A stretch of 64,000 nt of DNA. Origin: an uncultured Thermoplasmata archaeon (GTDB taxonomy: Archaea; Thermoplasmatota; Thermoplasmata; Halarchaeoplasmatales; Halarchaeoplasmataceae). The stretch spans positions 85,298-149,297 of the forward strand of contig CAYWJQ010000005.1 in NCBI GenBank assembly GCA_964458595.1, given 5' to 3'. Below the pieces are notes generated by a model, which was not told the origin of the DNA, did not search any database, and saw only the letters and a list, made by a program, of their open reading frames with translations. The translations under genes and the position numbers were made by a program. Shown here in pieces: positions 7,974 through 37,809 of this stretch (its first letter is position 1; the number at the start of each line of letters is the position of its first letter).

Positions 7974-8180
7974 GCGATTTAAATATTTCGATTACGCCAA
8001 CAACCTTTCATATTCTCTATTTTTTTCTTCATAATTTTTGCCTTGTGAGCACAGCTTTTAAGAAAAATATCACACTTTCTCGGGCACACTCGATCCAAAC
8101 TTATGGTAATCATCCAAAACTTTATTAAGTTTCTTATTCGTACTGAAGGATTCAAAAAAGGTATTTCAGGCAAGATTAAA

Positions 8181-11100
8181 ATGGTTACGAGAGTTCAAGA
8201 GGAAAAGGACAAAGATGAAGTCCTCTCTCAGATGGAACCTTTGATCGCGGAATGGTTCGATAATAAGTTCGATTCTCTTACTGAGCCTCAGGGTTATGCT
8301 ATACCACTGATCCACGAGAAAGAGAACGTGCTCGTTTCTTCACCGACCGGTTCGGGTAAGACCCTTACCGCTTTCCTTTCCATCATAAATGAACTTTTCA
8401 AGAAGGATAAAGAAGGCGAACTCGAAGACAAGATATACTGCGTTTATGTTTCTCCTTTGAAGGCTTTAGCTAACGATATCCATAAAAATCTAGAAGAACC
8501 GTTGGAGGAGATCAAAGAACTCGCCGAAGAAAAAGGTGTCAAAGTCCCAGATATCAAGACGGCGATACGCTCGGGGGATACGCCGCAGAAGGAAAGGAGG
8601 AAGATGACCGAAAATCCCCCGCATATCTACATCACGACCCCGGAAAGTCTCGCTTTATCGCTTTCCTCTCCTAAGTTCAGGAAACGATTCAAAGACGTAC
8701 AGTACTTCATAAACGACGAGATCCATGACATAGCTTCCTCGAAAAGAGGTGTATATCTCTCTCTCAACACGGAACGTTTGGAGGAGCATGTCAATGGAGA
8801 GATGACCCGTATAGGGCTTTCCGCGACCCAGGCACCGATCGAAGAACTCGCTAAATTTCTAGGAGGTTTCGAAAACGGGGACCCGCGGGACGTGAACATA
8901 ATCGAGGTGATGGGCGAGAAGAGCTTGGATCTTTCCGTTATATCGCCTGTAGATGACATGACCTTATTGCCTTATGAAGTCGTGAACTCTAGGATGTACG
9001 ACCGTCTAAAAGAGATGGTGGAGAATCACCGCACCACTTTGATATTCACCAATACCAGAAGTGGTGCCGAGAACGTGGCCTACAAACTCAAAGATAGGGG
9101 CATCGAGAACGTAGCGGCTCATCACGGCAGTCTTTCGAAGGACACACGTTTAGAAGTTGAAGACGACCTCAAATACGGTGACATGAAAGCGGCGGTCTCA
9201 TCTACATCGCTTGAACTGGGTATCGACGTCGGATATATCGATCTAGTGGTTCAGGTCAATTCACCAAAGACCGTAGCGAAGGGTCTTCAGAGAGTCGGAA
9301 GAGCGGGACACTCCATAGGAGAGACTTCCAAGGGCAGGATAATAGTTTTTGAAAAGGACGAGCTTTTAGAATGTACCGTCCTGACTCGAAAGGCCTATCA
9401 GCACGATATTGATAGGGTGAGTATACCAGAAAATAATCTAGACGTTCTGTCCCAGGGGATAATAGGCATGAGTATAGAACACCGCTGGGGGGTAGATGAA
9501 GCCTACGAGATGGTGAGGCGGTCCTACTGTTATAAAGATCTTCCAGAAGAGGATTTCTTGAACGTGTTAGATTATCTAGGCGGGACTCAATTCGAAAACA
9601 CCTATCCCAAAATATGGTACAACGAGGACGAAGAAGTCTTCGGTAAAAAAGGCGGAGTCCAGATGCTGTATTATATGAATGTCGGCACCATCCCTTCGGA
9701 CTCTAGCTATCAAGTATATTCTGAAAAAGGAGCACCACTGGGAAATCTATCCGAAAAGTTCGTCGAAAGACTTTCCAAGGGCGACGTTTTCGTTCTTGGC
9801 AGTCACTCTTACGAGTTCCTCCATACCAAAGGTACTAGGGTCTTCGTGAAAGACGCCGCCGGCAAAAAGCCAACAGTTCCCAGCTGGACCGGGGAGATGC
9901 TCCCAAGAAGTTATGATCTCTCGGTAGGTATAGGGGAATTCAGGAGAAAGGTCTCCAAAAAGATGGGAGATGAAGACGTGGTAAAGTGGCTCGAAGACAA
10001 ATACAGGATAGACGAAGGTTCCGCACAGACCATCATCAGTTATTTCAAGGAACAAAAGGGCGTGATAGACGAACTTCCGACTGATAAAAAGATTATCCTG
10101 GAAGGACATATCGGCCAGGACGGAAAGTACAATATGATCTTCCACGCCTCTTACGGAAGAAAGGCCAACGATACTCTTTCGCGAGCCTACGCTTACAAGA
10201 TCTCGAAGAAATTCAACTGCAACGCCAACGTTTCCATCACCGATAACAACTTCATGATCACGACTAAGAAAAAGATACCTCTCGATAAAGTCAGAGATAT
10301 ATTGTCGTCCGAGGAGATCGAAGATGTTTTGAAAAAATCCGTCAGGAACACCGAACTATTCAAACAGCGGTTCAGACACTGCGCTACTCGGGCTCTGATG
10401 ATACTGCGGAACTACAAAGGTAGAGAGATATCAGTTTCCAAGCAGAAGCTCCGGTCGAAAGAGATGCTGGATAAACTCCGCGGGATGGATGACTTTCCGA
10501 TAGTGAAGGAGACCTACAATGAGATACTGTACCAGGTGCTTGACCTCGAGAAGGCGGAAAAAGTTCTAAAAGATATAGAGGACGGAGAAGTAGAGATCAA
10601 GTCTACCGGTTACTCCGATACACCGTCTCCTTTCGCCCACGACGTTTTGATGGCCGGTATCTCCGACGTAATAATGATGGACGATAGGAGCAGCCTGCTA
10701 AGAAAATTCCATCAAAAAGTTCTCGAACAGGTGATCCCGAAAGAGGAGATAGAGAACTTCAAATTCGACAGAGACGTGGTCGAAGATCACTTTTTGGACA
10801 AGAAACCCGAATTCGAAAATAAAGACGAGATGTTAGAGGCCATCAAAGAATTAAAACCGATCCACGTTTTCAAGGAAAAAGGTAACAACGTCTTTTCGCG
10901 CACGGATAAATCTTTTGAAGAGGTCAGGGAATGGTCCAAAGAACTTCTTAATGAAGGTGAGATCCAGTCTCTCTGGGTGGATGAGACGAAATATGTGGCG
11001 AGCGAAGATTTGGGCGAATACCTTCGTTCTCTAGATCAAGGAGAACAGCCTCACGGGAGTACACCGCTGATTGAGAAATTGAAAGAAGGTAGTATGACCC

Positions 11101-13565
11101 CTCACGAGCTATACGACTCGGTCGATATGAGATTGAAAGACGTCAAAAACACCCTGAGAGATATGGAGCGTAAAAGACTAGTCAACAGAGTCGGAATCAC
11201 CGAAGACGACGGATACAGATACGCTCTACTGGAGAAAAAGGACAAAGACTTGGAATGGGTCGAGGAGATCATTTCTAGTTACCTGGAGCACGAGGGTCCT
11301 AGAAGTCTAGAGGAGATAGCATACGCTCTGGACCTTTCCGAAGACATCGCTTTAAAGGCTTTGAACAACCTCGTGGAGCAGGACGAAGTGGTGTCCGGAA
11401 GGTTGGTGATGGGAGAAGGAGAACAGTACATGCTCAAAGAGGACTATCACGATTTAAGATTCCCCGGAGGAGAGTTCGTTTCTGACGATAAAACCCAGCA
11501 GTACAAGGCTAAAAAACAATTCGACGAAGTCGGCTCTATAGAAGAGTATTTCGATCTCTTCATGGAAGCCGGAACTCCCTACGATATATTCCAAAGAGTT
11601 GCGGACTTTTCGATCGACGACTGGAAAGAGATGAGAAGGGAAGGTAAAATAGTTGAAGGTAGATTTGTTAAGGGGAAGGTCAGGTACGCCTTCAAAGAAG
11701 ACATACCCGTTTTCGTGGGAGCTTATCGCACCGAAGAACTAGATGAAGAGGAAGAGAAGATATTAGAGATTATTAGGAAGGGAAAAGACACGATAAGGCA
11801 GATAAAGAAGAACAGCGATTTAGAGAACGACCGGGTGAAAGAGATAGTGAAAAAACTCGATAGAAACCTCTACATCATGAGAGAATATACCGGTCGGGAA
11901 GGATGGTCGTCTACCAACAAATACGAACCTCTCGATGTCGAGCCGATGGATCCTGAAAAGGCTAGAAAAAAGATAATCGAACGGTACTTGAAAGGAAACG
12001 GCCCCGCATCATTTTCGAATATAAGATATTATACCGGATTCGATTCAAACGAGATCGAGAGTATAATATCCGAATTGCTTCACAAAAAAGAGATAAAAAA
12101 GTTGAAAGTCGGTTCTTCTCAGCAGGAGATGTATGTAGAAAGCAGAGAAGTCGAAGATCTGCAGAAAGCTGAAGGAGGAGAATTCGACAAGTTCAGGATA
12201 CTGTCCAAAAAAGATCCCTATGCGAGGCCTCTCTGGGCCGATATATATCGAAGGTACGGAGACGATTGGGTATTCCCATTCGTGAAGAGAGGTGAAGTCG
12301 TCGGAGGGTTGGAAAAATGGAAGATGAGCGGCTGCATCGAGATCAGGCATCTAGACTTGGATGACGAATCGATGCTGCCGGAAGCCCTGGAAGCTATAGA
12401 CGAGATGATGGAGTATCACCGGTTGGAAGGTTACGATATCATAAGGGTCAGGAATTTTCAGAATGAAGCCGTGAAGGAACTGCCCGAGGAAATACTCTCT
12501 ATATTCCGCGAGAACGGCTACGTGATGATCCAGGACATGTTGGTGAAAGGCAATGTCGTGGAAGAGGTTTTCGAGGAAGAGAAGATCAGGTCCTATATAT
12601 TCAAGAAACAGAAGTTGGGAGACGAAAGTTACGAAAATCCTTCCGAAGCGATGGAGAAGATGAAAGGTACCAGGTCGGATTTTGAATTAAGACCTAGAGT
12701 AGATGATTTTTACTCGTTGGACTGGATGTACAGCAGGGAGAAAGTTTTGGGCGGGAAGATGATACCTCCTTACAAGATGTACGCCTATCCTGAAGACGTG
12801 TCGGTATACAAAGCTGCAAAGGACCTTGAAAACTCATCTCAGATGGACACTATTCTAGAGATCGTCGATGACAAAGAGCCGGTTCCGAAGAGGACCATAT
12901 ATCATAGATCCCCGTACAGTAGAACCAAAACAAAAGAGATGCTGGACGATTTGTACGAAGGGTTGGCTATCACTAGAGACGAAGATAACAGGTATATAAC
13001 GACGCCGGATAACGGTATGGAGTCGGAGGAAGCGAAAAAAGAAGTGATGAGATGGGCTTTCCAAAATTTCGGTGTATTTACAGCCGAAAAACTTTCTTCG
13101 TATCTGGGTCTCGATTACAGCATGAGAGAGATCAGAAAACTGCTTTCAGAACTTGTTGAGGAAGGTTTTCTTTTGAAGGGATTCCTAGTGTCGGATGACG
13201 ATTCGGTTTACTGGATACTTTCCGAAGGATTAGAATCTTTACCCGATATAGAGTTCGAAGGCGAAGGGGTTATAACGACAAAAGATAGACTTTCGCTCTA
13301 CTTCAGAAACGAAATGAAAGAAAAATTTGATCTTGGTACGAGCAACGTGGTCTTCGACGGTCCGGAATTAAAGGCAGCTTTTAAAGGCAGTCTCAAGTCC
13401 AATATGGTGGAGATAAAGCAATTTGAAGGGGATGACGAGTATAGGAAGACCATCAAAGAATGGGCCTATGACCATAACATGAGCGTGAAGAGCGAAAAGA
13501 AAAAGGAGAGGGAAGTGTCGGATTACGAGATAAGGAAATGGTACGAACGTACTAGAGGACTTTAA
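8181..13565 (+). CDS. lhr: Lhr-like large superfamily-2 helicase with a long C-terminal extension
   Basis: Walker A SSPTGSGKT, DEIH box and motif VI QRVGRAGH. The N-terminal F..LTEPQ..AIP motif is typical of Lhr. The Lhr core of about 900 aa is followed by an extension of about 900 aa. Start taken at ATG 8181 (MVTRV...). Confidence 0.75.
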   Translation: MVTRVQEEKDKDEVLSQMEPLIAEWFDNKFDSLTEPQGYAIPLIHEKENVLVSSPTGSGKTLTAFLSIINELFKKDKEGELEDKIYCVYVSPLKALANDIHKNLEEPLEEIKELAEEKGVKVPDIKTAIRSGDTPQKERRKMTENPPHIYITTPESLALSLSSPKFRKRFKDVQYFINDEIHDIASSKRGVYLSLNTERLEEHVNGEMTRIGLSATQAPIEELAKFLGGFENGDPRDVNIIEVMGEKSLDLSVISPVDDMTLLPYEVVNSRMYDRLKEMVENHRTTLIFTNTRSGAENVAYKLKDRGIENVAAHHGSLSKDTRLEVEDDLKYGDMKAAVSSTSLELGIDVGYIDLVVQVNSPKTVAKGLQRVGRAGHSIGETSKGRIIVFEKDELLECTVLTRKAYQHDIDRVSIPENNLDVLSQGIIGMSIEHRWGVDEAYEMVRRSYCYKDLPEEDFLNVLDYLGGTQFENTYPKIWYNEDEEVFGKKGGVQMLYYMNVGTIPSDSSYQVYSEKGAPLGNLSEKFVERLSKGDVFVLGSHSYEFLHTKGTRVFVKDAAGKKPTVPSWTGEMLPRSYDLSVGIGEFRRKVSKKMGDEDVVKWLEDKYRIDEGSAQTIISYFKEQKGVIDELPTDKKIILEGHIGQDGKYNMIFHASYGRKANDTLSRAYAYKISKKFNCNANVSITDNNFMITTKKKIPLDKVRDILSSEEIEDVLKKSVRNTELFKQRFRHCATRALMILRNYKGREISVSKQKLRSKEMLDKLRGMDDFPIVKETYNEILYQVLDLEKAEKVLKDIEDGEVEIKSTGYSDTPSPFAHDVLMAGISDVIMMDDRSSLLRKFHQKVLEQVIPKEEIENFKFDRDVVEDHFLDKKPEFENKDEMLEAIKELKPIHVFKEKGNNVFSRTDKSFEEVREWSKELLNEGEIQSLWVDETKYVASEDLGEYLRSLDQGEQPHGSTPLIEKLKEGSMTPHELYDSVDMRLKDVKNTLRDMERKRLVNRVGITEDDGYRYALLEKKDKDLEWVEEIISSYLEHEGPRSLEEIAYALDLSEDIALKALNNLVEQDEVVSGRLVMGEGEQYMLKEDYHDLRFPGGEFVSDDKTQQYKAKKQFDEVGSIEEYFDLFMEAGTPYDIFQRVADFSIDDWKEMRREGKIVEGRFVKGKVRYAFKEDIPVFVGAYRTEELDEEEEKILEIIRKGKDTIRQIKKNSDLENDRVKEIVKKLDRNLYIMREYTGREGWSSTNKYEPLDVEPMDPEKARKKIIERYLKGNGPASFSNIRYYTGFDSNEIESIISELLHKKEIKKLKVGSSQQEMYVESREVEDLQKAEGGEFDKFRILSKKDPYARPLWADIYRRYGDDWVFPFVKRGEVVGGLEKWKMSGCIEIRHLDLDDESMLPEALEAIDEMMEYHRLEGYDIIRVRNFQNEAVKELPEEILSIFRENGYVMIQDMLVKGNVVEEVFEEEKIRSYIFKKQKLGDESYENPSEAMEKMKGTRSDFELRPRVDDFYSLDWMYSREKVLGGKMIPPYKMYAYPEDVSVYKAAKDLENSSQMDTILEIVDDKEPVPKRTIYHRSPYSRTKTKEMLDDLYEGLAITRDEDNRYITTPDNGMESEEAKKEVMRWAFQNFGVFTAEKLSSYLGLDYSMREIRKLLSELVEEGFLLKGFLVSDDDSVYWILSEGLESLPDIEFEGEGVITTKDRLSLYFRNEMKEKFDLGTSNVVFDGPELKAAFKGSLKSNMVEIKQFEGDDEYRKTIKEWAYDHNMSVKSEKKKEREVSDYEIRKWYERTRGL

Positions 13566-20798: not shown

Positions 20799-22022
20799 TC
20801 ACTTGACTATAGGCACCACGTTGTTTGCCTCATCCACATCGACGATGTGGGGTTCTTTTTTAGACACGCATTCTTTAACTTCGTCTAAAGCCTCATCTAC
20901 GCTATCGAACGGTTCACAGAAGCAGTTCTCTATTATTTCATCATCAAGGTCACTGACTATGAACAGAGAGTGATCTTCTAAAAATTTGAGGATGTTGGTG
21001 GCTTTGTGTCCACCGAACGGATAATCTCCATAAACTTCATCGATTATCTCATCGCGATCGTCGGAAGAGGACAAAAGATCGTAAAAAGTTCTTGGTCCTA
21101 TACCCTCGTAACACTCGCTGACCATTATCAGTACGCCACCATCTCGACAGATCTGCTTGGTATTTTCGAAGCTCTTGAACGATTGGTACAGATTTTTAGT
21201 GCCCGGTTCCGCCGTCCTAGCTATCACGATATCCGCTTTTTGACTTACTTCGGCGGTGAAGATATCTTTAGCAGTTTCGATCAGCTCATCGAAAGAATAG
21301 AAGAAATCGCCAGCTGAAACTTCGTAAACTTTTTCCGAAGTGGAAACGCTGTTTATACTCGATATCTTGCTCTCTAGATGGTCGATTATCATCTCAGCGG
21401 CTTCCAAAGCGTCCAGATTGATCGGATTTTCATCCAATGAAAGAGGTAAAGAATTTTCATCTAAGGAGAACTCATGGTTCTCGACAATAGTGTCCCAGTG
21501 GCATACTCCGGGTAGGAGAGATTTCCTACCTCCCGTAAAGCCGGCAAAGTAATGCGGCTCGACGGAGTTGATATTAATTATCCTATCGTAACCTAAAATA
21601 TTCTTATCTGCCTTTACCGGAGTTCCTCGACTGGTCTCGCCGATCTCGATATGTTCGTTCTCTTGACAATCATGGATGATCGTTTTAGATTCCAACTCCT
21701 CGTAATATTTACCCAATATCTTCTTCAAGCCTTCCTCCGTGGGAGGATCGTGAGTACCTGTGGCCACAATCACGTTCAACTCCCGGTTGAAGAGATCCAT
21801 CCCATTCTCTTCGAGATGTTCATCTAGAGTTTCCAGAAACAGAGATGTCGGTGTGGCGCGCTTGAAATCGTTCACTATGAAAAGCAGGCTATTTTCACCT
21901 ATAAAATCGGCGAGAGACTCATGATCTGAATTCAATAGTTCCTCATAATTTTTTTTGATCTCTTCTTTATTCATCCCTTCAGCGGTTCGATCTAAGCCTA
22001 TTTTTTCTATCTCATCATCCAT
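20799..22022 (-). CDS. larA: LarA-family (lactate racemase-like, DUF2088) nickel-pincer enzyme homolog
   Basis: 407 aa. NDFKRATP, HYFAGFTGGRKSLLPG (candidate cofactor-tethering Lys) and TGTHD are characteristic of the LarA family. Confidence 0.7.
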   Translation of the reverse strand: MDDEIEKIGLDRTAEGMNKEEIKKNYEELLNSDHESLADFIGENSLLFIVNDFKRATPTSLFLETLDEHLEENGMDLFNRELNVIVATGTHDPPTEEGLKKILGKYYEELESKTIIHDCQENEHIEIGETSRGTPVKADKNILGYDRIININSVEPHYFAGFTGGRKSLLPGVCHWDTIVENHEFSLDENSLPLSLDENPINLDALEAAEMIIDHLESKISSINSVSTSEKVYEVSAGDFFYSFDELIETAKDIFTAEVSQKADIVIARTAEPGTKNLYQSFKSFENTKQICRDGGVLIMVSECYEGIGPRTFYDLLSSSDDRDEIIDEVYGDYPFGGHKATNILKFLEDHSLFIVSDLDDEIIENCFCEPFDSVDEALDEVKECVSKKEPHIVDVDEANNVVPIVK

Positions 22023-22043
22023 CCTTTCACGATCCTGATATGA

Positions 22044-23510
22044 TCAAATTTTGATATGCTCTTCTTCCATCTCTTCGTCCTTTGAGATGAGCTTTCCCGG
22101 ATTCAATATATGGTCGGGATCGAAGGTGTTCTTTATCCCGTTCATCAGCTGCAGCATCTTGTCGCTTTTGAATTTTCTCAGCTCCGGCTTTTTGATTAGA
22201 CCTATACCGTGTTCACCGGTGATCTCTCCGCCCATTTCTACCGCGGTTTCGATCCATCTCTCTCTAAGACTCTCGACTTCATCCCAGTCGATATCCTCAT
22301 CAGGCAAATTACCTTCGATATGAACGTTACCGTCTCCGGCGTGTCCGAACGCGTAGAAAGTCCCTTCTACTTCGGACTCATCAAATATCTCTCTAGCTTT
22401 CGAGATGAATTCGGGTATCTTGGACGGAGGAACTACGAGATCTCCAGAGCGGTGGCCTGTCACGTTTCCTTCTTGGATCACTTCAGCTACACCTTCCCTT
22501 ATCTTCATTATCTTGTTCATCTCTTTCCGTTTTGTAGCGAGGAAGGCGTCGAGTGCTCCTTTTTCCTGACACACTTCCATGATCTTTTGAGCTTTTTCTA
22601 GTATCTCGTTTTCTTCCTCTCCGGTGACGATTATCATCAAGGTCGCTTCCCCTTTTTCAGCGGGCCAGCTCTCACCGACTTTGTCTTCACCGCTAGAGAT
22701 CGTTTCTCTTTCTAAATATTCTATTCCCGCAGGAGTGATCCCGCTTCTCAGTATTTCAGGCACGGCATTAATCGCGTTTTCACCTGATTCGAAGGGGAGT
22801 ATCACAAACTTAGATTCTTCGGAGGCCGGATAAAGTCTTAAAATCGCTTTTGTTATTATACCTAAAGTCCCTTCACTGCCTATCATCAGATGGAGTAAAG
22901 AATATCCCGTGTTATCCTTCAATAGTTTTCCGCCCAGCTCCATGATCTCTCCATCTGGAAGTACGACTTCTAGACCTTTCACGTAATCTCTCATGACGCC
23001 GTGTTTTAGGGTCGCTTCTCCTCCCGCGTTGACCGCAATAGTTCCACCGATCTGAGAGTCTTCCGTGGTGGGATGTATGGGAAGTGTAAGCCCTTTCTCT
23101 TCTACCTTTTCCTTCAATTTTTCCATCGGAACACCGGCGGCTACTTCCACCATCAGGTTATCTTCGTCCACATCTACCTTATCATCCAATCTTTCCAACG
23201 ATAAGCCGACACCGCCGTAGACGGGGATCATACCTCCCATCAAGCCGGTCTTTCCGCCGATCGGGGTAACGGGAACGAGATTATCGCTGGCCAATCTCAT
23301 TATCTTCGATACTTTTTCTGAAGAGTTGGGTTTTACCAATACCTCCGGATATTTTCCTTTAACTTCCGCAGTCGAAAGCTCGTCATGGGTATAACTATCC
23401 ATGAGGTCTTTATCCGTGATAACAAAATCCGAACCGCATATATTTTCCAATTCGTTGATGATCTCTTCGTCGACTTCGTTATATTTTGGCCTTTCATCCA
23501 TCAAAATCAC
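22044..23510 (-). CDS. glcD: FAD-linked oxidase, GlcD/D-lactate dehydrogenase family
   Basis: 488 aa with a PCMH-type FAD-binding domain (PIGGKTGLMGG) and an FAD-oxidase C-terminal domain (GHAGDGNVH). Confidence 0.8.
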   Translation of the reverse strand: MILMDERPKYNEVDEEIINELENICGSDFVITDKDLMDSYTHDELSTAEVKGKYPEVLVKPNSSEKVSKIMRLASDNLVPVTPIGGKTGLMGGMIPVYGGVGLSLERLDDKVDVDEDNLMVEVAAGVPMEKLKEKVEEKGLTLPIHPTTEDSQIGGTIAVNAGGEATLKHGVMRDYVKGLEVVLPDGEIMELGGKLLKDNTGYSLLHLMIGSEGTLGIITKAILRLYPASEESKFVILPFESGENAINAVPEILRSGITPAGIEYLERETISSGEDKVGESWPAEKGEATLMIIVTGEEENEILEKAQKIMEVCQEKGALDAFLATKRKEMNKIMKIREGVAEVIQEGNVTGHRSGDLVVPPSKIPEFISKAREIFDESEVEGTFYAFGHAGDGNVHIEGNLPDEDIDWDEVESLRERWIETAVEMGGEITGEHGIGLIKKPELRKFKSDKMLQLMNGIKNTFDPDHILNPGKLISKDEEMEEEHIKI

Positions 23511-23806
23511 CTGTAACTTCGATAATCGTTACATGATTTACAACTTCATCGTTAATAAGACTTTACGACGTATAGAGGGAAATAGTATGGGTAAAGAGGT
23601 GAAGATGACGGCTATGCTCAACCTATTGAAAAAAATTCATCCAGTTGTTTAACCATTATCTGAGTTCATTTAAGGTTAGTCAGTGGTGGACCTTTCTTCG
23701 ATAAACCTAGAGGCACTTCACACATAGGAAAATAAAATAAAAATTCCCTTCAAATTTAGATTGAAAAAATCATTGAAATTTACTCTAGCAGAGAGAGAAA
23801 TTACTA

Positions 23807-24499
23807 TTATTGATTTTTAATCTTTGATTTAGGTTTATTTTTTCCGTTTTCTAATACAATAAAAACTCTATAGAAAAATAGATAGCTGATAGCTATGCCT
23901 AGAACAAATATTACCGAGAGGTGAAAACCATTAATCATCATTTTTGATTTTCTAAGAAAAAATGACAGGGAGACCACAGAACTAGATAACCCAAATACAC
24001 CAAAAGCAATCAATATTGAATTTTTCATTTCTTTATCTTTTATGTTTATTAGAAGAAGACTACTCGTTAAAAAATAAAAAAAACTTCCCCCATAGAAGAA
24101 CACTATAAGTTCCTTGAAGTAATCTTGTGGAGGGAGCAAATTTGGAAAATTAAATATTTGGACGATAATGCCAATAATAAATAGGAATATACTAGCCTTC
24201 ATCATTAGAGTAGAGCTATTAGTCTCATCTTTCCAAGTATAGTCGAAAAACAACTCTTTATAAAGTTTAAAGAAAGAAATTGAAAAAGAAATTACCATCA
24301 ACAACGGTAACAAAATGGGTAGTCCTTGGATAATTTGGAAAATAAAGAGCACCATTAATATTGCCCCAGCCCCACTACTTCCAGGCAAAGAAAGAAAGGA
24401 GAAAAGAATAATTAATGGATTCAAAATCAAAAATATGAATACTAAAAGATAAGACTTCTCTATAGGTTTTAAAGCTTTTATTATTTTTTCGTCATCCAT
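23807..24499 (-). CDS. Polytopic membrane protein, hypothetical, in a very AT-rich island
   Basis: 230 aa with at least 6 predicted TM helices. Local GC is far below the window average. Confidence 0.4.
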   Translation of the reverse strand: MDDEKIIKALKPIEKSYLLVFIFLILNPLIILFSFLSLPGSSGAGAILMVLFIFQIIQGLPILLPLLMVISFSISFFKLYKELFFDYTWKDETNSSTLMMKASIFLFIIGIIVQIFNFPNLLPPQDYFKELIVFFYGGSFFYFLTSSLLLINIKDKEMKNSILIAFGVFGLSSSVVSLSFFLRKSKMMINGFHLSVIFVLGIAISYLFFYRVFIVLENGKNKPKSKIKNQ

Positions 24500-24645
24500 C
24501 TAAGTTTACAGTTTGTAAAGATATTCTTTCAGTATTAATATTTTTTTAACGCTAAAATCAAAGATTTTGCCTAATCACTTTTTTCAGGAAACTAGAGCCG
24601 TTAGAACCAAAGGTTCTAACAAACCACTAAAAATCAAATATTTGT

Positions 24646-25262
24646 TAGTGGACTCGTCAGAAGCTAAGCTTCTAACTGCCCATTAAAACAAGTTTTGAGG
24701 AAAAACAACACTCTTTCCTCAACTCACTCGTTCAAAGAACTCGTGATTTAATGGACCCATCAGAATCAAAGATTCTAACTAACCATTTTTCATAGAAAAA
24801 TGGACCCAGCGGGACGAGGGAATTTTTGTAGAAAATTGCCGAGCAAGAGGAATCTTTGATTCCTCGTGTTTCAAATCCCGCGGTGCACTGAGCGGATGCG
24901 AAGTGGACCCGTCAGAAGCGAAGCTTCTAACTGCCCATTAAAACAAGTTTTGAGGAAAAACAACACTCTTTCCTCAACTCACTCGTTCAAAGAACTCGTG
25001 ATTTAATGGACCCATCAGAATCAAAGATTCTAACTAACCATTTTTCATAGAAAAATGGACCCAGCGGGACGAGGGAATTTTTGTAGAAAATTGCCGAGCA
25101 AGAGGAATCTTTGATTCCTCGTGTTTCAAATCCCGCGGTGCACTGAGCGGATGCGAAGTGGACCCGTCAGAAGCGAAGCTTCTAACTGCCCATTAAAACA
25201 AGTTTTGAGGAAAAACAACACTCTTTCCTCAACTCACTCGTTCAAAGAACTCGTGATTTAAT
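24646..25262. repeat. Tandem direct repeat of a 255-bp unit in about 2.4 copies, containing hairpins and degenerate copies of the tRNA-Ala 3' end
   Basis: Units start at 24648, 24903 and 25158 (period 255). Copies A and B differ at 2 positions. Copy C runs directly into the tRNA-Ala gene at the shared motif aatggaccca. Confidence 0.9.
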
Positions 25263-25362
25263 GGACCCAGCGGGATTTGAACCCGCGGCCTTCACCTTTC
25301 TTGCCACCACATTATTCCAGTAGGATGCAAGGGTGACGATCTGCCAACTGATCTATGGGCCC
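25262..25362 (-). tRNA. tRNA-Ala (anticodon UGC) with a 28-nt canonical intron between positions 37 and 38
   Basis: Manual fold of the reverse complement: acceptor GGGCCCA/TGGGTCC with the G3:U70 Ala identity pair, D-arm GATC/GATC, anticodon stem TCACC/GGTGA, loop CT-TGC-A, intron TCCTAC...GGCAAGAA whose GGCAAG segment can pair with the anticodon-loop CTTGC (BHB-like), T-arm GCGGG-TTCAAAT-CCCGC and discriminator A. Confidence 0.8.
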
Positions 25363-25587
25363 TGAACGAGCACTTGCGAGTGAAGGGCGCATAGATATTT
25401 GGAGCTTTGCTCCGAAACAATCTATGGGCCAAACATAACTCATGCGATTGAAATGAGTTTTCAGTCGCAGTGTAGTGCCATGCCAACAAAAATGCATGCG
25501 CCCCATTTCAACACTGCGAATAGGAACTTATGTATATTTTAAAAGAAATACGACACAATAAAGTATTTTTGTCTTCAAAACCAGTAT

Positions 25588-25899
25588 TCAGCTTTGAAGT
25601 ACGATCTCGATATGAACTTCGTCGGGAACTTGAATACGCATCAGCTGTCGCAGCGCTCTTTCGTCTGCGTCGATATCGATCAATCTTTTGTGGACTCTCA
25701 TCTCCCAGCGTTCCCAAGTTTCGTTTCCTTCGCCGTCCGGTGATTTTCTGCAGGGAACGGTCAATTCCTTGGTCGGCAGTGGGATAGGTCCTTTCATCTC
25801 CACTCCTGTTCTATCGGATATCTCACGGATCTGACTGCAGATCTCTTCTATCCTTTCTGGATTGGTTCCGCTTAACGAGATTCGTGCTTTCTGTGCCAT
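25588..25899 (-). CDS. rps10: 30S ribosomal protein S10 (uS10)
   Basis: 103 aa with [21 protein letters not shown]...GPIPLPTK. Confidence 0.9.
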
Positions 25900-25950
25900 G
25901 TAATATTCCTCACAAAGAAATGATATAAAAGGGTTTTGTAAGAAAGGTTT

Positions 25951-27234
25951 CTACATCTCTTTTTCTTCTATGTCGATGACCTGTCCTGCCGCAACGGTCT
26001 GACCCATATCTCTGATAGCGAATCTACCGAGTTCTGAGAACTCTTCGACTCTTTCGAGAGATAGGTTTCTAGTGGGCATGACCTCGACTACGGCGGCTTC
26101 TCCGTTCTTCAAGAAGTCCGGGTTCTCTTCTTTGACTTCGCCGGTCTTCGCATCGAGTTTCTTCTTGAGATCCATGAACTTGCATGCTACCTGTGCAGTG
26201 TGTGCGTGGAATACCGGTGTATAACCTTCGGTCACAACGCTCGGATGGTCGAGAACTATTATTCTCGCTGTGAATCTTTCCGCGACAGTCGGCGGATCAT
26301 CGGAAGGTCCGCATACATCTCCTCTTCGGATATCGTCTTTTCCGACACCTCTCACGTTGAAACCTACGTTATCTCCGGGTTCGGCCTTCGGGATCTCTTC
26401 GTGATGTTCCTCTATAGACTTGACTTCTCCGCTGACGTTCGCTGGCATGAAAGTGACTTTATCACCAGGCTCCATAACCCCGGTCTCTACACGACCGACC
26501 GGTACGGTACCGATGCCAGTGATGGAATATACGTCCTGTATCGGTAATCTGAGAGATTTCTCGATCGGTTTTCCAGGAGTCTCGAAGTCGTTTATCGCTT
26601 GAAGGAACCGCTTGCCGTCCCACCAGTCTATCTGCTTATCTCCCTCTCTAGTTATGTTATGTCCTTTGAGAGCGCTGGTCGGAACGAGATCATACTGGCT
26701 TTCCTGATAACCGACCGACTGCAGAAGTTGACTGACCTCCTCTTTGACTTCATTGAATCTCTCTTCGCTAAGTTCTGGTTTTGTGGCATCCATCTTGTTT
26801 ATAGCTACGACAAGCTGGTCGACACCCAGTGTTTTAGCGAGGAAAGTATGTTCCCTCGTCTGGGCCATAACGCCTTCTGTAGCCGCTACGACGAGAACCG
26901 CCGCGTCTGCCTGTGAAGTCCCTGTGATCATGTTCTTAACGAAATCCTGGTGGCCCGGTGCGTCTATGATCGTGAAATAATATTGGTCCGTATCGAACCG
27001 CTTATGCATAACGTCTATGGTAAGACCACGATCCCTCTCTTCTTCGAGTTGATCCATGGCCCAAGCATAAGCGAAGGTTCCTTTTCCTTTCTCTTCCGCT
27101 TCCTTCTTGTACTCGTCGATAACGTGATCCGGTATCTCTCCAGTTTCGAATAACGTTCTACCAACTAAGGTGGATTTCCCGTGATCCACGTGACCTATGA
27201 ATACGAGGTTCATATGTGGTTTATCGTCTGCCAT
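25951..27234 (-). CDS. tuf: Translation elongation factor 1-alpha (aEF-1A)
   Basis: 427 aa with G1 [10 protein letters not shown]3 DAPGH and G4 NKMD, and full-length similarity to EF-Tu/EF-1A. Confidence 0.95.
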
Positions 27235-27399
27235 ATTTTTGTACCTCCAATTATCTATCTGCTTCTGTTTAATAGGTTGGCCTATTTATAATTTTATCCT
27301 CGAGCTAGACTATCTCGAGTCTACAGTATTGTGGAAATACTTCAATTATATATATTTGTTCCTCCTTTTCACTTTATCAAGCCCGCCTAACGTGAAAAA

Positions 27400-27873
27400 A
27401 TGTCGGTAGAAGTACGAAAAGCGGAAAAAGAAGATCTGGACGAAATCGTGGATATGTGGTATGAACTGGCGACCGATCATCAGGATATGATGGAAGGTTA
27501 TGAGCTCTGCGACGATTCGAAAAAGAATTGGAGAGAATTCGTAGAGAAGGGGTTCAAGAAAAAGGGGATCTGCACTTTCGTCGCCGAGACCGACAGTGGA
27601 GTGGTAGGTTTCCTCAATGTAGTCATAAGAGAAAGATTAGATATATTCGAAGAGAAGCGTATCGGGATGATACTAGATGTTTTCATTAAGGAAGAAGAAA
27701 GGGGAAAAGGTTACGGATCTAGATTGACTGAAAAAGCAGAAGAATGGATAAAAGATAAAAAGGTGAAGGTCGCGGTGCTCACCGTTTCACCTAGAAACGA
27801 AAAGGGGGTTGACTACTGGGAAGATAAGGGATACAGTACTTATCTCCTCAAAAAAAGAAAAGAACTGTTTTGA
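27400..27873 (+). CDS. GNAT-family N-acetyltransferase
   Basis: 157 aa with the acetyl-CoA motif RGKGYGSRL. Confidence 0.7.
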   Translation: MSVEVRKAEKEDLDEIVDMWYELATDHQDMMEGYELCDDSKKNWREFVEKGFKKKGICTFVAETDSGVVGFLNVVIRERLDIFEEKRIGMILDVFIKEEERGKGYGSRLTEKAEEWIKDKKVKVAVLTVSPRNEKGVDYWEDKGYSTYLLKKRKELF

Positions 27874-27879
27874 AAATAT

Positions 27880-28818
27880 TCAACCGAAGTGGTCGTAACC
27901 TCCCCCGAGTTCTTCTTTTTTCCCGTCGATCAGATACATACCCTCTTCAACTATTTCCCCCACGACGATAGGTTCTATCTTATCTATTTCAGATAGTTTG
28001 TCGGGAGATATGGTGAAGACGAGTTCGAAATCTTCGCCTCCGGACAGGGCCCATTTCATGGGATCTATACCGAGCTTCTTTCCAGTTGCTCTAGTCCTCT
28101 CAGAGATAGGTACTTTTTCTTTTTCTACCTCCGCTCCGACTCCACTTTCCTCGCAGATATGGCGGACTTCCGAGGCGAGACCGTCGCTCACGTCGATCAT
28201 CGAATTGACGTAAAGAGATAGTTCCCTTCCCGCATCCAACCTACATCGGGGCTGTAAATAATAATCTGTATATCCTTCTTCACCGGCTCTAAATAGCTCC
28301 AAGCCGGCCCAGCTCTTTCCCAGATCGCCGGTCACGCATATCAGATCGCCTACCCGGGCGCCGTCTCTAGTACAGAGCCTGTCTTTTTCAACTTTACCGA
28401 TTATCGCCACGTTTATTATCAAAAAATCGCCGTGAGTCGTGTCTCCTCCGATGATATTTAAACCGTATTCATCGGATGCCGCTTTCATCCCTTCGAAGAG
28501 GTCGTCGGCGAACGAAACTTCCGTATCATCCGGAAAGGCGATAGAGACCAAGCCCCACTCGGGCAGACCTCCCATGGCGGCGATATCCGATACGTTGACT
28601 ATGATCGACTTCCAACCGATCTGCCAAGGGCTCTGCCAGTCTAAATTGAAATGATCTTTTTCCACCAGCATGTCTGTTGTTAAAAGCGTGTATTCGTCGT
28701 CGGTATCCAACACTGCACAGTCGTCCCCGATATGTTTGTAGACTCGTTCGTCGTCGGCAAATTTCTCGCCGATCTTTTCTATCAAACCGAATTCTCCTAG
28801 GTCAGACAATTTATCCAT
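27880..28818 (-). CDS. thiL: Thiamine-monophosphate kinase
   Basis: PurM-like fold with the GDDCAVL N-terminal motif. It lies adjacent to thiE, with a start/stop overlap. Confidence 0.75.
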   Translation of the reverse strand: MDKLSDLGEFGLIEKIGEKFADDERVYKHIGDDCAVLDTDDEYTLLTTDMLVEKDHFNLDWQSPWQIGWKSIIVNVSDIAAMGGLPEWGLVSIAFPDDTEVSFADDLFEGMKAASDEYGLNIIGGDTTHGDFLIINVAIIGKVEKDRLCTRDGARVGDLICVTGDLGKSWAGLELFRAGEEGYTDYYLQPRCRLDAGRELSLYVNSMIDVSDGLASEVRHICEESGVGAEVEKEKVPISERTRATGKKLGIDPMKWALSGGEDFELVFTISPDKLSEIDKIEPIVVGEIVEEGMYLIDGKKEELGGGYDHFG

Positions 28819-30468: not shown

Positions 30469-32952
30469 TCACATGGATATCGGTATGTTTTCCATCTCTT
30501 TTTCTACTTTCTCGGCCATCCAGTTGGCGCCGCTGCCGGAAAACGATAGGATAGCTTTTCTATAATTTTCCGCTATTCCTTCCTTATTATCTTTACTTTC
30601 CTGAAGTTTAGCCATGGAAAAGTACGCTAATCCGAGTCTATATGAAGAACCGATCCTTTGGTAAATAGATATCGCCTTGGTGAATTGTTCCTCAGCTTTT
30701 TCGGGTTTATCTGCCATCCTGTAAGCCTTGCCGAGCAGCGTGTACGCGTAGGCTTTCTCCTTTTCGTCGTCCAAATCGCCGAGAAGTTCCTTCGCCTCTT
30801 CAGCCGTTTCTATGGCCTTTTCCAACTTATTTTTTTCCAAATAACATTCGGTCAAAGATAATAGGGCGGATGATTTGAGATCCCAATAGCCGAACTTTTC
30901 CGAGGTATCGACGGCATCTTTCAAATAATCCTCCGCATTCTTCAGTTCTCTAAGTATGGTGTATAGAGCCCCTATCTCTTTAAGACCGCCTACTTTCTGA
31001 TACGTTTCTTTTATCTGCTTCCAGTGATCCAATCCTTTCTGAAAGAAGGAAACGGAATCATCCCAATCTCCGTTCAATTTCTTGATCCTGGCGAGCATGA
31101 AGTAAGCCGTCGTCAATAGAGAATGATCATCTTCGCCCAGGGCGTTCAAAGCCTCGTAGAGATTCTCCTCGGCTTCTACACGTTTTCCTCTCTCGTTCAA
31201 TAACGATCCCAACCTGAAGAAGGCTTTTCCCGTGAATTTCTTTCTCTCTGAAGCGGAGTCTATCTCGGCCGCTTTATCTACTGATTTCTTGTATTCGGAG
31301 ACCGCCTGGTCATATTCTTGTCGATTTTCTTTTGTAGAAGCTATCCCCAAGTGAGATCGAACTTCGAGGACCTTGTCTTCCACGTTTTCTATGATCTCAC
31401 GATAAGACTCTAAAGCTCGGTCGTAATCATCCACCTTGCGGGATGCTTCGGCTTTGATGAAACCTATGTGATGATCTTCGGTATTTTTTTCCGTTTCAAA
31501 TCCGTCTATCAGATCTATCACGGTTTCATAATAGCCTGAAGAAACTATCTCTTCACCGTGATCTTTCACCTTTTCCTCGAACAGACCGTATTTGTTCGCG
31601 TTCAAAAGATGATAAAGTTCTTCGAGCTTCTGGCCCGCCTTGGCCATAGGTCTTTCCATATAATATTGAGAAGCGATCTCGTGTAATCGACGCTTATCCT
31701 CCAGCCTCAAGTATTTAACGATCTCTTTTCTTACGACCTTTGGAACTCCGACCTCGTTATCGACCGTGGACTCCATCAAAGGCGTATCCAATATATTGTC
31801 GACCATCTTAGGGGTTACGGTCTCGAGCCGGGTCAGTTCCTTTTTTTTCACCGGTTCTCTGAGGATAGATAGAAGAGCTAAAGACCAAAACTCCTCTTCG
31901 GTGATGTGGTTTTCCAATACTGTCTTCAAAGAATCTATCTCTTCCTGCTCGGAGTAACTATCCCTTAAAGCATCTAAAAAATAATCCTCGTTTTTCAGCT
32001 CTACCGTATAGTGATCGTCTAAGGATATATCATCCATCTCAGGAGAAAGGGCTATAATTGAGATCGTAGTTCCCATATCTAAAGTAACGATGTCTTCTAT
32101 GATTTGAGATATCTCCTCGTTTGAATAGATATCATCGAATATCATCAAGGACTTTATCTCTTTGAGATCTTTCTCTAGATTTGTGATCAAACCTTTTCTA
32201 TCAAGTTTAGCCGTCGATTTGAGATAAGAAGAAAGTCGATGCTGACCGCATAACTCTAAAAATTCAGATATCTTATCCCACAGATGCATCGGTTCCTGCC
32301 AATCCTTCGTTTCAAAATAAAAAACGTTGTTTTTACCGTCCATCTTTTTGGCTAGTTTACTCAAAAGGGTGGTTTTGCCGCTCCCTTCTGGACCCACCAC
32401 CGCTATCAGATCCTCTACATGCTCCCAATTGTCTAAAAGGTCTTCCAATTCAGGTATCGCCCTATCGTCAGGCTCGGGCATCTCGTCGAGATAAGAATCA
32501 GTAGAACCCTGTTCATGTTCACTGTCAAGTTCGAAGATATCTTCTTCTTCAACTTTCCTGATTATATCTAGAACAGAGATATTGGTCTGAAAATAAGTGT
32601 TTATCTCCCCAATATTCATCTTTTTCTTTTCCCCTTCTAGGGAGACTTCTACTTCGGTATTTAGCATCTCGTTTCTGATATCTCTAGCCTTTTTTATCCC
32701 GCTGTCCGTGAGAAAATAGGCCTTTCTCTTCTGTTTTTTTCCCTTGATCCGGCGGGTCTCTTCTTTCATGAAACCATCTTCGACCAATTTTCTCACGGCG
32801 TAAGAAACGGTATTTTGTTTGAGACCGACACTGTCGGCGATACCTTCCTGAGTTATCTCGACCGGAAGTGAATAACCATCTTCCTTTCCGTAATAATCGA
32901 GAATATGTACTATCACTTTTTCCTTTGCGGTGAAGTTTGCATCCATATGCAA
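30469..32952 (-). CDS. STAND-like NTPase with an N-terminal winged HTH, a central archaeal-ATPase (P-loop) domain and C-terminal TPR repeats
   Basis: 827 aa. The wHTH (GIADSVGLKQNTVSYAVRKLVEDGF) is followed by Walker A GPEGSGKTTL and Walker B MIFDDIY, and the C-terminal ~400 aa are TPR-like (repeated A..YY.LG/A.Y). Confidence 0.6.
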   Translation of the reverse strand: MHMDANFTAKEKVIVHILDYYGKEDGYSLPVEITQEGIADSVGLKQNTVSYAVRKLVEDGFMKEETRRIKGKKQKRKAYFLTDSGIKKARDIRNEMLNTEVEVSLEGEKKKMNIGEINTYFQTNISVLDIIRKVEEEDIFELDSEHEQGSTDSYLDEMPEPDDRAIPELEDLLDNWEHVEDLIAVVGPEGSGKTTLLSKLAKKMDGKNNVFYFETKDWQEPMHLWDKISEFLELCGQHRLSSYLKSTAKLDRKGLITNLEKDLKEIKSLMIFDDIYSNEEISQIIEDIVTLDMGTTISIIALSPEMDDISLDDHYTVELKNEDYFLDALRDSYSEQEEIDSLKTVLENHITEEEFWSLALLSILREPVKKKELTRLETVTPKMVDNILDTPLMESTVDNEVGVPKVVRKEIVKYLRLEDKRRLHEIASQYYMERPMAKAGQKLEELYHLLNANKYGLFEEKVKDHGEEIVSSGYYETVIDLIDGFETEKNTEDHHIGFIKAEASRKVDDYDRALESYREIIENVEDKVLEVRSHLGIASTKENRQEYDQAVSEYKKSVDKAAEIDSASERKKFTGKAFFRLGSLLNERGKRVEAEENLYEALNALGEDDHSLLTTAYFMLARIKKLNGDWDDSVSFFQKGLDHWKQIKETYQKVGGLKEIGALYTILRELKNAEDYLKDAVDTSEKFGYWDLKSSALLSLTECYLEKNKLEKAIETAEEAKELLGDLDDEKEKAYAYTLLGKAYRMADKPEKAEEQFTKAISIYQRIGSSYRLGLAYFSMAKLQESKDNKEGIAENYRKAILSFSGSGANWMAEKVEKEMENIPISM

Positions 32953-37044: not shown

Positions 37045-37809
37045 ATGACCGAAAAGGAAAGCAAATTCAAGGGGTTAAGAAAGTTCAATGCGTTTATGGC
37101 CGTTTTACATTTTATACAGGGAGCTTTGATGGTATATCTGAGTACGGATTTCGCCATCTCGATTACCAGTTCATACATGGCGGGACCGCCGGGCACTGAA
37201 GAAACCGCTACAGTCGTACTTTTCGATGTACCGGTAGGACTGGCAGTCGCCGGTTTTCTCTTCATCTCCGCTATAGCCCATTTCTCACTGTCAACTTTCG
37301 CATACGATTGGTATAAGAGGAATCTCAAGAACCACATAAACAAAGCCAGATGGGTAGAATATTTCTTCAGCAGCTCTCTGATGATAGTCATAATAGCGAT
37401 GCTCGTTGGCTTCACTGATATAGGCGTACTTATCGCTTTATTCCTGGTGAACGGTTCGATGATACTGTTCGGATGGCTGATGGAAGCCTACAACCAGAAT
37501 ACTGAAAAAACCGTGTGGTCACCTTTCATATTCGGATGTATAGCAGGGGCGGCTCCATGGATAGCTATCGCTATCAGACTTTTCACGGCGATCTCAGAAT
37601 CCCCGGTAGAGGTGCCTAGTTTCGTTATATGGATATTCGTCTCTCTGTTCATATTCTTCAATATATTCGCCCTAAACCAGTTACTGCAGTACAAGAAAGT
37701 GTGGAAATGGGAAGACTATCTCTACGGCGAGAAGATGTACATCGTGTTGAGTTTGGTTGCGAAATCGGCATTGGCCTGGCAAGTTTTCTCCGGAACTTTA
37801 GTGGGATAA
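37045..37809 (+). CDS. Heliorhodopsin (inverted-topology microbial rhodopsin)
   Basis: 254 aa with 7 TM. It shares diagnostic blocks with characterised heliorhodopsins: NGPPGT-like AGPPGT, N(K/R)ARWVEY, SMILFGWL, WIAIAI and the TM7 retinal-Lys region YIVLSLVAKSALAWQVFSGTL. Confidence 0.8.
   Translation: MTEKESKFKGLRKFNAFMAVLHFIQGALMVYLSTDFAISITSSYMAGPPGTEETATVVLFDVPVGLAVAGFLFISAIAHFSLSTFAYDWYKRNLKNHINKARWVEYFFSSSLMIVIIAMLVGFTDIGVLIALFLVNGSMILFGWLMEAYNQNTEKTVWSPFIFGCIAGAAPWIAIAIRLFTAISESPVEVPSFVIWIFVSLFIFFNIFALNQLLQYKKVWKWEDYLYGEKMYIVLSLVAKSALAWQVFSGTLVG

Follow-up and report, generated by a model that had tools for sequence, protein, structure and literature searches.

A modular array of hairpins trailing the tRNA-Ala genes in a clade of Thermoplasmata archaea

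Contig CAYWJQ010000005.1, assembled from an uncultured Thermoplasmata archaeon, carries on its minus strand a tRNA-Ala(UGC) gene that is followed directly by a hairpin-rich tandem repeat, and this trailing array is the subject of the present analysis. The window, to which all coordinates refer, is the 64-kb stretch of the contig (64,000 nucleotides) that was analysed as a whole. Its lineage belongs to a group of salt-lake Thermoplasmata known from metagenome-assembled genomes (MAGs), some of them named Candidatus Natronoplasma, across which EF-1alpha is 82-97% identical at the amino acid level. The intron-containing tRNA-Ala that the original prediction had recognised from the letters of the sequence alone is recovered by the Rfam tRNA family (RF00005) at 25262-25362 on the minus strand, with 59.3 bits (gathering threshold 29) and an E value of 2.5e-11. 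The gene is 101 nt long, that is, 73 nt plus a 28-nt intron, and the Rfam alignment leaves 30 bases unaligned in the anticodon loop; the G3:U70 pair is present and the CCA end is not encoded in the gene. ARAGORN misses this tRNA when run without its intron option and miscalls it as tRNA-Ser(tga) when the option is used, while orthologues lacking the intron are called Ala(tgc) by the same program.

Eight modules trail the tRNA-Ala gene on its own strand, from 25261 down to 24590, in the order X-B-H-X-B-H-X' followed by a decayed terminal module; the module names (X, B, H and the others used below) were coined in this analysis. The span of 24590-25262 originally predicted for the array coincides exactly with these eight modules and the final base of the tRNA. 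The tRNA gene and the parts of the array are as follows.

25262-25362, minus strand: tRNA-Ala(UGC) gene, with 5' exon 25326-25362, 28-nt intron 25298-25325 and 3' exon 25262-25297
25159-25261, minus strand: module X copy 1, 103 nt, covariance model score 43.5 bits; H-like, with the extra hairpins Xa (25235-25255) and Xb (25205-25232) within the loop of hairpin 1
25166-25186: hairpin of X copy 1, GTTAGAAGC-ttc-GCTTCTGAC, followed by GGGTCCA
25056-25158, minus strand: module B copy 1, 103 nt
25125-25136: 5' arm of B copy 1, GCGGGATTTGAA, an inverted copy of the tRNA 3' end
25102-25120 and 25076-25092: hairpins P2 and P3, respectively, of B copy 1
25056-25069: 3' arm of B copy 1, TCCCGCTGGGTCCA, a direct 14-nt copy of the tRNA end
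25007-25055, minus strand: module H copy 1, 49 nt, covariance model score 78.4 bits
25038-25058: hairpin 1 of H copy 1, CCATTTTTC-tat-GAAAAATGG, which borrows its first three bases, CCA, from the preceding module
25014-25034: hairpin 2 of H copy 1, GTTAGAATC-ttt-GATTCTGAT, followed by GGGTCCA
24904-25006, minus strand: module X copy 2
24801-24903, minus strand: module B copy 2
24752-24800, minus strand: module H copy 2
24649-24751, minus strand: module X copy 3 (X', distal), 37 bits, tail decayed to GAGTCCA; it holds the only two substitutions of the repeat
24590-24648, minus strand: terminal decayed module of H/J type, 59 nt, 31.1 bits, tail GGCTCTA
24624-24651: hairpin of the terminal module, CCACTAACAAAT...TTTTTAGTGG
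24600-24620: hairpin of the terminal module, GTTAGAACC-ttt-GGTTCTAAC

The tandem repeat itself was located by Tandem Repeats Finder at 24647-25269, with a period of 255, 2.4 copies and 99% matches. Only two sites, 24654 (T/C) and 24665 (T/G), set units 1 and 2 apart, and both lie in the distal copy, while unit 2 and the partial unit 3 agree over 113 nt with no differences, which bears out the predicted pair of near-identical units with two differences and a partial third. Each 255-bp unit is the sum of one X (103 nt), one B (103 nt) and one H (49 nt), all ending in GGGTCCA, which represents positions 67-73 of the tRNA, i.e., the 3' acceptor strand and the discriminator. Copies of the tRNA-Ala 3' end within the units had been foreseen, but their number had been put at two per unit; since the unit is made of three modules it contains three, and GGGTCCA is found seven times between 24752 and 25268. 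Modules H, J and X copy 7-8 nt of the tRNA, whereas module B copies 14 nt; the 5' arm of B, GCGGGATTTGAA, in addition matches 12 nt of the T-arm perfectly as their reverse complement, with some B variants matching at about 16 of 20 bases. In module H, hairpin 1 is followed by a 3-nt linker, hairpin 2 and the GGGTCCA tail; more generally, every module pairs at its start with the CCA that ends the tRNA-like sequence before it and closes with its own 7-14-nt copy of the tRNA end. The 255-bp period is a very recent tandem duplication of the X-B-H block and represents the latest expansion of the array.

The inverted repeats listed in the original prediction are all present, including the one described as preceding the array (gttagaacc-aaa-ggttctaac, at 24600-24620), and the density of hairpins is reflected in the folding of 24590-25262 far below shuffled sequences on both the tRNA strand (z = -9.4) and the other strand (z = -9.1). 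The apex of P2 in module B is the reverse complement of the apex of hairpin 2 in module H over 13 nt, GAATCTTTGATTC (p < 0.003 from shuffles). This is suggestive, without being established, of an interior of B that derives from an inverted H-like piece; a simple reverse complement of the whole H module was rejected, the common part being only the 13-nt apex. The assembly of the array is corroborated by three independent short-read assemblies of the species of the window, which confirm the distal junctions and whose contigs break inside the repeat; the sequence of X copy 3 recurs in all three (loci L142-L144). Because of the array, short-read assemblies break exactly at tRNA-Ala (L002, L003, L142-L144 and L150).

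In the DNA searched, H-type modules are confined to the 3' side of tRNA-Ala genes. A covariance model of H (R1) was run over 467,521 bases of DNA from the clade and from outgroups with a cut-off of E < 0.001, and all 32 matches fall in arrays 3' of tRNA-Ala on the tRNA strand, so that the modules do not form a dispersed family of repeats. The same restriction emerged from motif scans covering 322 kb. A metagenome scan with the H pattern returned 48 loci, of which 12 are genuine and 12/12 of these are located 3' of tRNA-Ala; the other matches, devoid of tRNA-Ala context, were all dismissed as chance, including the hairpin-like or repeat-like matches L109, L129 and L135, which look like eukaryotic satellite, long terminal repeat or other repeats. 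Within the window, the tRNA-Ile and tRNA-Asn genes have plain trailers with no modules, and GGGTCCA occurs four further times without them.

Among the relatives, modules (H, B, J or K) are present at 15 of the 17 tRNA-Ala loci with a readable tRNA and trailer, in varying number and order. Arrays in the clade range from no modules to eight or more, all on the tRNA strand and built on two hairpin archetypes. Downstream of the tRNA-Ala linked to S10, the orders are H-B-K-H (L004), H alone (L005, L121), H-B-K-J (L007), B-H (L008, L137), B-H-H (L096), B-J-H (L108), B-H-J-H (L134) and H-J (L015). L009 and L011 are module-free, and there a flank beginning tYATCATTAC adjoins the tRNA directly, the same flank being found elsewhere after the last module. 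The comparison of relatives that had been proposed as a check of the original prediction thus gave a divided answer: most relatives have related but not identical arrays, and no cognate mobile element was found. The array is, in short, a clade-wide and tRNA-Ala-specific modular hairpin array, more than a private minisatellite. Literature searches for such arrays described in archaea found none.

A related arrangement is also present on the 5' side of the gene, where a palindromic module precedes the tRNA leader.

25363-25430, minus strand: upstream palindromic module and leader
25420-25430: copy of tRNA bases 2-12, GGCCCATAGAT, in the upstream module
25401-25413: inner hairpin GGAGC-aaa-GCTCC, in the upstream module
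25385-25396: inverse copy, ATCTATGCGCCC, in the upstream module
25363-25384: 22-nt tRNA leader, TTCACTCGCAAGTGCTCGTTCA

This layout, which is the mirror image of the arrangement of module B 3' of the tRNA, is also found in L014 and L018 and at a second tRNA-Ala locus (L146, L150), the copied start of the tRNA amounting to its first 11-12 nt. In L014, the inner hairpin of the upstream module, GAGGAATC-aga-GATTCCTC, is identical to P2 of B. The last 8 nt of the leader, CTCGTTCA (25363-25370), are complementary to TGAACGAG in module X (25236-25243, trailer +19 to +26), so that a leader-trailer helix could form; the pairing is not conserved in L001 and may be due to chance. As to the intron of the tRNA, it is present in some relatives (L005, L007, L008 and L011, as opposed to L009, L013 and L121) with a different sequence, and the intron-containing genes are called tRNA-Ser by ARAGORN when introns are allowed.

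Arrays trail two separate tRNA-Ala genes, the UGC gene after S10 and a CGC gene after a gamma-glutamyltransferase gene. The latter locus is represented in the metagenome scan by L098, where the array reads H-B-H-B'. In the species of the window it is represented by L150 (B'-H-X), whose H and X are 100% identical to the copies of the window and whose B variant is about 80% identical. L145, also at this locus, and L008, at the S10 locus, come from one MAG; each reads B-H before the same distal flank of 27 nt, and across the 254 nt of tRNA, B, H and flank they share 91% identity. L146-L149 have one decayed H together with the upstream palindromic module and the same leader. Overall, when the two tRNA-Ala loci within a genome are compared, their arrays agree at 90-100%. 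The tRNA-Ala cassette (in places comprising upstream module, leader, tRNA, array and flank) is therefore paralogous at the two genes and is undergoing homogenisation, and since homology extends on both sides of the modules, gene conversion is the simplest account of why the two loci share identical copies.

For hosts with an S10 identity of 75-86% at the DNA level, H modules are 82-98% identical and some B modules 83-91%. The two measures can also disagree, in either direction: S10 identity is 0.94 and B identity 0.73 for the pair L010/L096, and 1.00 and 0.69 for the window and L004, as opposed to 0.78 and 0.85 for the window and L108. Decay grows with distance from the tRNA, as the substitutions and the GAGTCCA and GGCTCTA tails of the window are all distal, and the same is seen in L103, L134, L015, L007 and L140. 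Modules are thus acquired and lost, change their order, and are swapped between the two tRNA-Ala loci within a genome.

Arrangements of the B type are not limited to the clade. A module of about 100 nt follows an S10-linked tRNA-Ala(CGC) in L025 (7757-7860, on the chromosome of Actinarchaeum halophilum) and in L026 (1796-1900), and in both cases this B-like module carries an inverted copy and a direct copy, the latter of 21-23 nt, of the 3' end of the resident tRNA itself. The B-type arrangement therefore arises repeatedly from the local tRNA. L026 additionally repeats the start of the trailer. A further locus after a gamma-glutamyltransferase gene, L151 (4612-4825, Ca. Natronoplasma sp.), retains only the 3' third of a tRNA-Ala, GGCCGCGGGTTCAAAT ... 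CCCGCTGAGTCC, in which about 186 nt of B-like interior separate the T-loop from the 3' strand of the T-stem; the locus could represent a disrupted tRNA gene or else an intermediate stage in how B arose.

The DNA beyond the distal end of the array differs between close relatives, and in the window it consists of an AT-rich segment with an orphan gene.

23550-24589, minus strand: AT-rich species-specific segment, GC 0.26-0.30, abutting the distal end of the array (genomic context of the array)
23807-24499: open reading frame (ORF) for an orphan multi-pass membrane protein of 230 aa, within the AT-rich segment

The AT-rich flank with its odd membrane protein is therefore as originally described. 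The 230-aa ORF is confined to the species of the window, with no Pfam match and only itself retrieved among 5.8 billion proteins; the closest relative (L001/L004) has no AT-rich segment and carries peptidase M14 and S8 genes in its place. The window and this relative (contig CAZPCW010000021) are about 70-80% identical across 8 kb, but identity rises to 100% between about 25934 and position 25262, where the tRNA ends on its 3' side, a tract that includes S10, the spacer and tRNA-Ala, and their arrays differ beyond it. Such a stretch amid a neighbourhood of about 70-80% identity suggests recent recombination between lineages, probably anchored in the tRNA and the conserved genes.

As regards structure, the pairing of module H is well kept: standard pairs make up 96.9% of the pair cells in 16 different copies, as compared with 88.5% in shuffles and 31-49% when the partners are slid, and compensatory changes on both sides are found in 7 of the 18 pairs. 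In particular, one U.G wobble is retained in 16/16 H copies, which on the other strand would be a C.A mismatch. P2 and P3 of module B covary as well, and the tRNA strand is the better-folding one for modules H, J and X. Known structured RNAs were also considered as candidates and rejected. C/D-box and H/ACA small RNAs were set aside because inspection by eye revealed no RUGAUGA/CUGA pair in k-turn register and no ACA box; a hammerhead-like core was suspected in CUGAYGG close to the tail of H, but the conserved A9 is absent and Rfam shows no match; split or permuted tRNA halves and bulge-helix-bulge introns do not apply, as the modules have neither a T-loop nor a 5' acceptor strand and no 3-4-3 bulge-helix-bulge is seen at the junctions. 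ARAGORN detects no extra tRNA in the array, and the repeat modules themselves have no tRNA match in Rfam.

Taking these features together, the array is quite possibly an rtT-like trailer of tRNA-Ala, evolving by slippage, template switching and gene conversion, probably transcribed and under structural constraint. Slipped-strand events or unequal recombination between the repeated tRNA-end heptamers would change the number of modules, template switching at palindromes would generate the inverted and direct tRNA-end copies of B and of the upstream module, and paralogous tRNA-Ala cassettes would exchange modules by gene conversion. The array is predicted to be transcribed as the 3' trailer of pre-tRNA-Ala, for which the strand-specific wobble pairs give indirect support; there, each hairpin with its tRNA-end mimic, often followed by a T-run, might serve termination, 3'-end processing or protection, and it may release stable small RNAs.

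The nearest known parallel is the tyrT-tyrV region of Escherichia coli. There, as checked here, 3.1 units of 178 bp come after tyrV on the strand of the tRNA, and each of them ends in AATCCTTCCCCCACCACCA, the 3' 19 nt of tRNA-Tyr, and contains an inverted copy, GGGGAAGGAT, that can pair with the unit end; the region is annotated as the non-coding RNA rttR (small RNA RttR). The background on these repeats and on rtT reportedly goes back to Egan and Landy in 1978 and to Bosl and Kersten in 1991, and we take RttR (rtT) to be the RtT family of Rfam. To our knowledge, tandem repeats carrying the 3' end of the adjacent tRNA were known only from the tyrT operon of E. coli and have never been fully explained. 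In the archaeal array, too, tandem units lie downstream of a tRNA gene on the same strand and each one closes with the 3' terminal sequence of that tRNA, and module B further shares the plan of an inverted copy followed by a direct copy of the tRNA end. If it is a transcribed trailer, it would be an archaeal counterpart of the 178-bp repeats that give RttR/rtT RNA. The two systems nonetheless differ in several respects: they have no sequence or Rfam similarity and belong to an archaeon and a bacterium; the archaeal copies of the tRNA end span 7-14 nt without CCA, as compared with 19 nt with CCA; and several short module families are shuffled between species and between two loci, in contrast to one homogeneous unit in E. 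coli.

Several observations weigh against a transcribed and constrained trailer. Module B folds better on the opposite strand, and a simple role as sense RNA therefore fails to cover it. The covariation of perfect hairpins can also arise mutationally, through the template-switch correction of quasi-palindromes that is established in E. coli genetics, and since this process mimics covariation without selection, hairpin covariation is weaker evidence for RNA than usual. Hairpins are not needed for archaeal termination, and terminator-like sites (a G+C-rich stem with a T-run) number four, all on the tRNA strand, against 1.8 +/- 1.4 in shuffles, which is a mild enrichment. In addition, T5 runs inside X and at the start of H should halt archaeal RNA polymerase early, so that distal modules may rarely be transcribed. 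In Rfam, searched over 22000-28000 with E up to 1, only the tRNA and three weak below-threshold matches, taken as chance, were found, and no RtT family. Finally, the arrays are dispensable, two loci having none. The alternative offered in the original prediction, an array of structured RNA elements or terminators, is all the same closer to the evidence than its first idea of attachment-site scars.

The same mutational processes could act with no function at all, and it is conceivable, albeit unlikely, that the array is a functionless hairpin-prone minisatellite in which the palindromes of T-arm and trailer provoke slippage and template switching, and which would persist only through these processes and gene conversion, as they continually regenerate and homogenise the copies. 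The dispensability of the arrays, their high variability in number and order and the decay of distal copies would all be expected from this, as would the direct-inverted-direct layout of B and of the upstream module, which is the one expected of two template switches, and the emergence of a B-like module in two distant halophilic lineages from their own tRNA-Ala(CGC) sequence (L025, L026). It is, however, difficult to reconcile with module sequences that are conserved across hosts as well as the S10 gene or better, with a U.G wobble in 16/16 H copies that quasi-palindrome correction should erase, and with an architecture of hairpin 1, hairpin 2 and tail that is kept in H, J and K despite their diverged sequences. 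A far less probable origin is by classical att scars, i.e., repeated integration of a virus or plasmid by a tyrosine integrase at the tRNA-Ala 3' end and later deletion leaving attR-type cores, as initially predicted. The tRNA 3' end is indeed repeated in direct orientation, each module ending in GGGTCCA (7-8 nt) or TCCCGCTGGGTCCA (14 nt), much as direct tRNA 3'-end repeats bound inserted DNA at archaeal tRNA attachment sites of the SNJ2 type, and the 14-nt copy of B has the length of the att core, 14 bp, of the SNJ2-type integrases of haloarchaeal pleolipoviruses (PMC5861418). Likewise, the DNA beyond the array is species-specific, AT-rich and orphan, and the 100%-identity tract shared with a genome about 79% identical stops at the tRNA 3' end. 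On the other hand, the copied segment is only 7-8 nt in most modules, and the inserts are tiny (42-96 nt) and form recurrent structured module families with compensatory hairpin changes, unlike element remnants. Furthermore, no integrase or element gene accompanies any of about 20 arrays: the 49 ORFs of the window include no integrase or transposase, those annotated being all housekeeping, in line with the predicted lack of an integrase nearby, and the gene lists beside related arrays hold no integrase or mobile-element gene. A cognate element, or an attP counterpart, was not encountered in collections of mobile DNA either, as the H pattern has 0 matches in IMG/VR, the 16-mer of the B end has only chance matches there in high-GC coding DNA, and blastn of the whole array finds no match in 72,556 plasmids (PLSDB) or 50,697 phage records (INPHARED); the absence of a viral, phage or plasmid counterpart is weak evidence because these collections hold few elements of such hosts. 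Classical integrase scars are thus unlikely and already largely refuted.

A mobile origin of another kind is less likely than a trailer but a serious rival to it, and it deserves more weight than the scars. According to it, the modules would be site-specific, non-autonomous single-strand hairpin cassettes that insert right after the TCCA of tRNA-Ala or of a resident module, moved by a trans-acting enzyme that reads the folded hairpin and its short tail, either of the HUH/IS200-IS605 type or an integron-like tyrosine recombinase. Since each cassette ends in TCCA and recreates its own target, arrays would grow head to tail. The boundaries of filled and empty sites are exact, TCCA is the best-kept part of each junction whereas the preceding GGG varies, terminal inverted repeats are lacking, orientation is strict and the mismatch or wobble in the stem is kept. 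IS608 uses a guide sequence, and a TGG located 3 nt before the hairpin is similarly complementary to the CCA on both sides. The content of modules is out of step with host relatedness (e.g., L010/L096 and the window/L108), and tRNA-proximal copies are intact while distal ones are decayed. The geometry of H (target TCCA, 21 nt, 21-nt hairpin, 7 nt) also matches that of 52-bp PATE remnants, the terminal-only PATEs of haloarchaeal IS605-type elements having a 5-nt target, 18 nt, a 22-nt hairpin and 8 nt (PMC3119063 Table S9). The likeness to PATEs extends to size, to the one hairpin in subterminal position, to the few conserved nucleotides at the 3' terminus and to insertion just 3' of a short target; neither has terminal inverted repeats or needs a target duplication, and the salt-lake habitat is common to both (Dyall-Smith et al. 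2011, PMC3119063). However, PATEs are dispersed in tens to hundreds of copies with recognisable parent transposons, whereas H, J and K occur only after tRNA-Ala. A 4-nt target should scatter copies, yet in 467 kb there are none outside tRNA-Ala 3' ends, and the four additional GGGTCCA sites of the window are empty. Neither a parent element nor a transposase was found for the modules, as TnpA (Y1 HUH) and TnpB are missing from the 64-kb window and no TnpA, TnpB or integrase lies beside any array. Identical modules at two loci are more simply explained by gene conversion, since the tRNA and the distal flank are also shared, the 255-bp repeat is a block duplication and not a series of single insertions, and B departs from the plan of a hairpin plus tail. 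That the modules represent a new miniature mobile cassette, homing as a folded single strand to the tRNA-Ala 3' end, recreating its target and building polar arrays in the manner of integron cassette arrays or of IS200/IS605 end-remnants in tandem, is slightly less likely still; its recombinase would possibly be host-encoded or lie elsewhere in the genome, and the B-like modules of L025 and L026 would then reflect the same process in other salt-lake lineages.

Some resemblance to integron cassette arrays was also noted, as both are anchored and polar, with unit hairpins that have a conserved base and a variable, compensating apex, and with a junction hairpin that borrows its first bases from the neighbouring unit. 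The attC sites of integrons carry RYYYAAC...GTTRRRY boxes (the R''/R' consensus) and have an adjacent IntI gene. An identity with attC was rejected, as hairpin 2, GTTAGAA...TTCTGAC, has the reverse polarity, no IntI is found and the units contain no ORFs. A miniature inverted-repeat transposable element (MITE) or a casposon remnant was similarly discarded, H, J and X being without terminal inverted repeats and Cas1 being absent; the idea of a casposon came from the 14-nt duplicated end of B, whose two ends share only an offset 8-mer that belongs to hairpin P3. A CRISPR-like array was excluded because its would-be 'spacers' do not vary and its repeat spans just 7 nt.

Elsewhere in the window, a few genes deserve mention in their own right. 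The catalytic subunit A of an A-type ATPase (54089-57556, minus strand, 1155 aa) is split by an intein that bears a LAGLIDADG homing-endonuclease domain. The gene of the ATPase proteolipid (c subunit; 59691-61589, minus strand) encodes 632 aa with six ATP-synt_C domains, which account for the tandem repeat found by Tandem Repeats Finder at 59946-60809 (258 bp, 3.4 copies, 73% identity), and its N-terminus has a weak, below-threshold PKD-like match. A heliorhodopsin gene is located at 37045-37809 (plus strand) and an Lhr-type helicase of 1820 aa with an AlkZ-like glycosylase domain at 8103-13565 (plus strand), while a protein of 827 aa (30469-32952, minus strand) combines TPR repeats with weak, mostly below-threshold HTH and NB-ARC/AAA-type NTPase matches.

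Collectively, the principle of repeats that end in the sequence of the tRNA appears here as a whole archaeal system, with several hairpin families, two tRNA-Ala genes and a clade at the level of a family, in which modules are shuffled quickly and yet conserved as well as a ribosomal protein gene. The data also point to the tRNA gene as an anchor of homology through which genomes no more than about 79% identical recombine. If the modules are mobile, they would represent a new site-specific hairpin element; if, as we tentatively favour, the array is a transcribed trailer of tRNA-Ala, it would be a new source of tRNA-trailer small RNAs and may provide a handle on tRNA 3'-end formation and termination in archaea.

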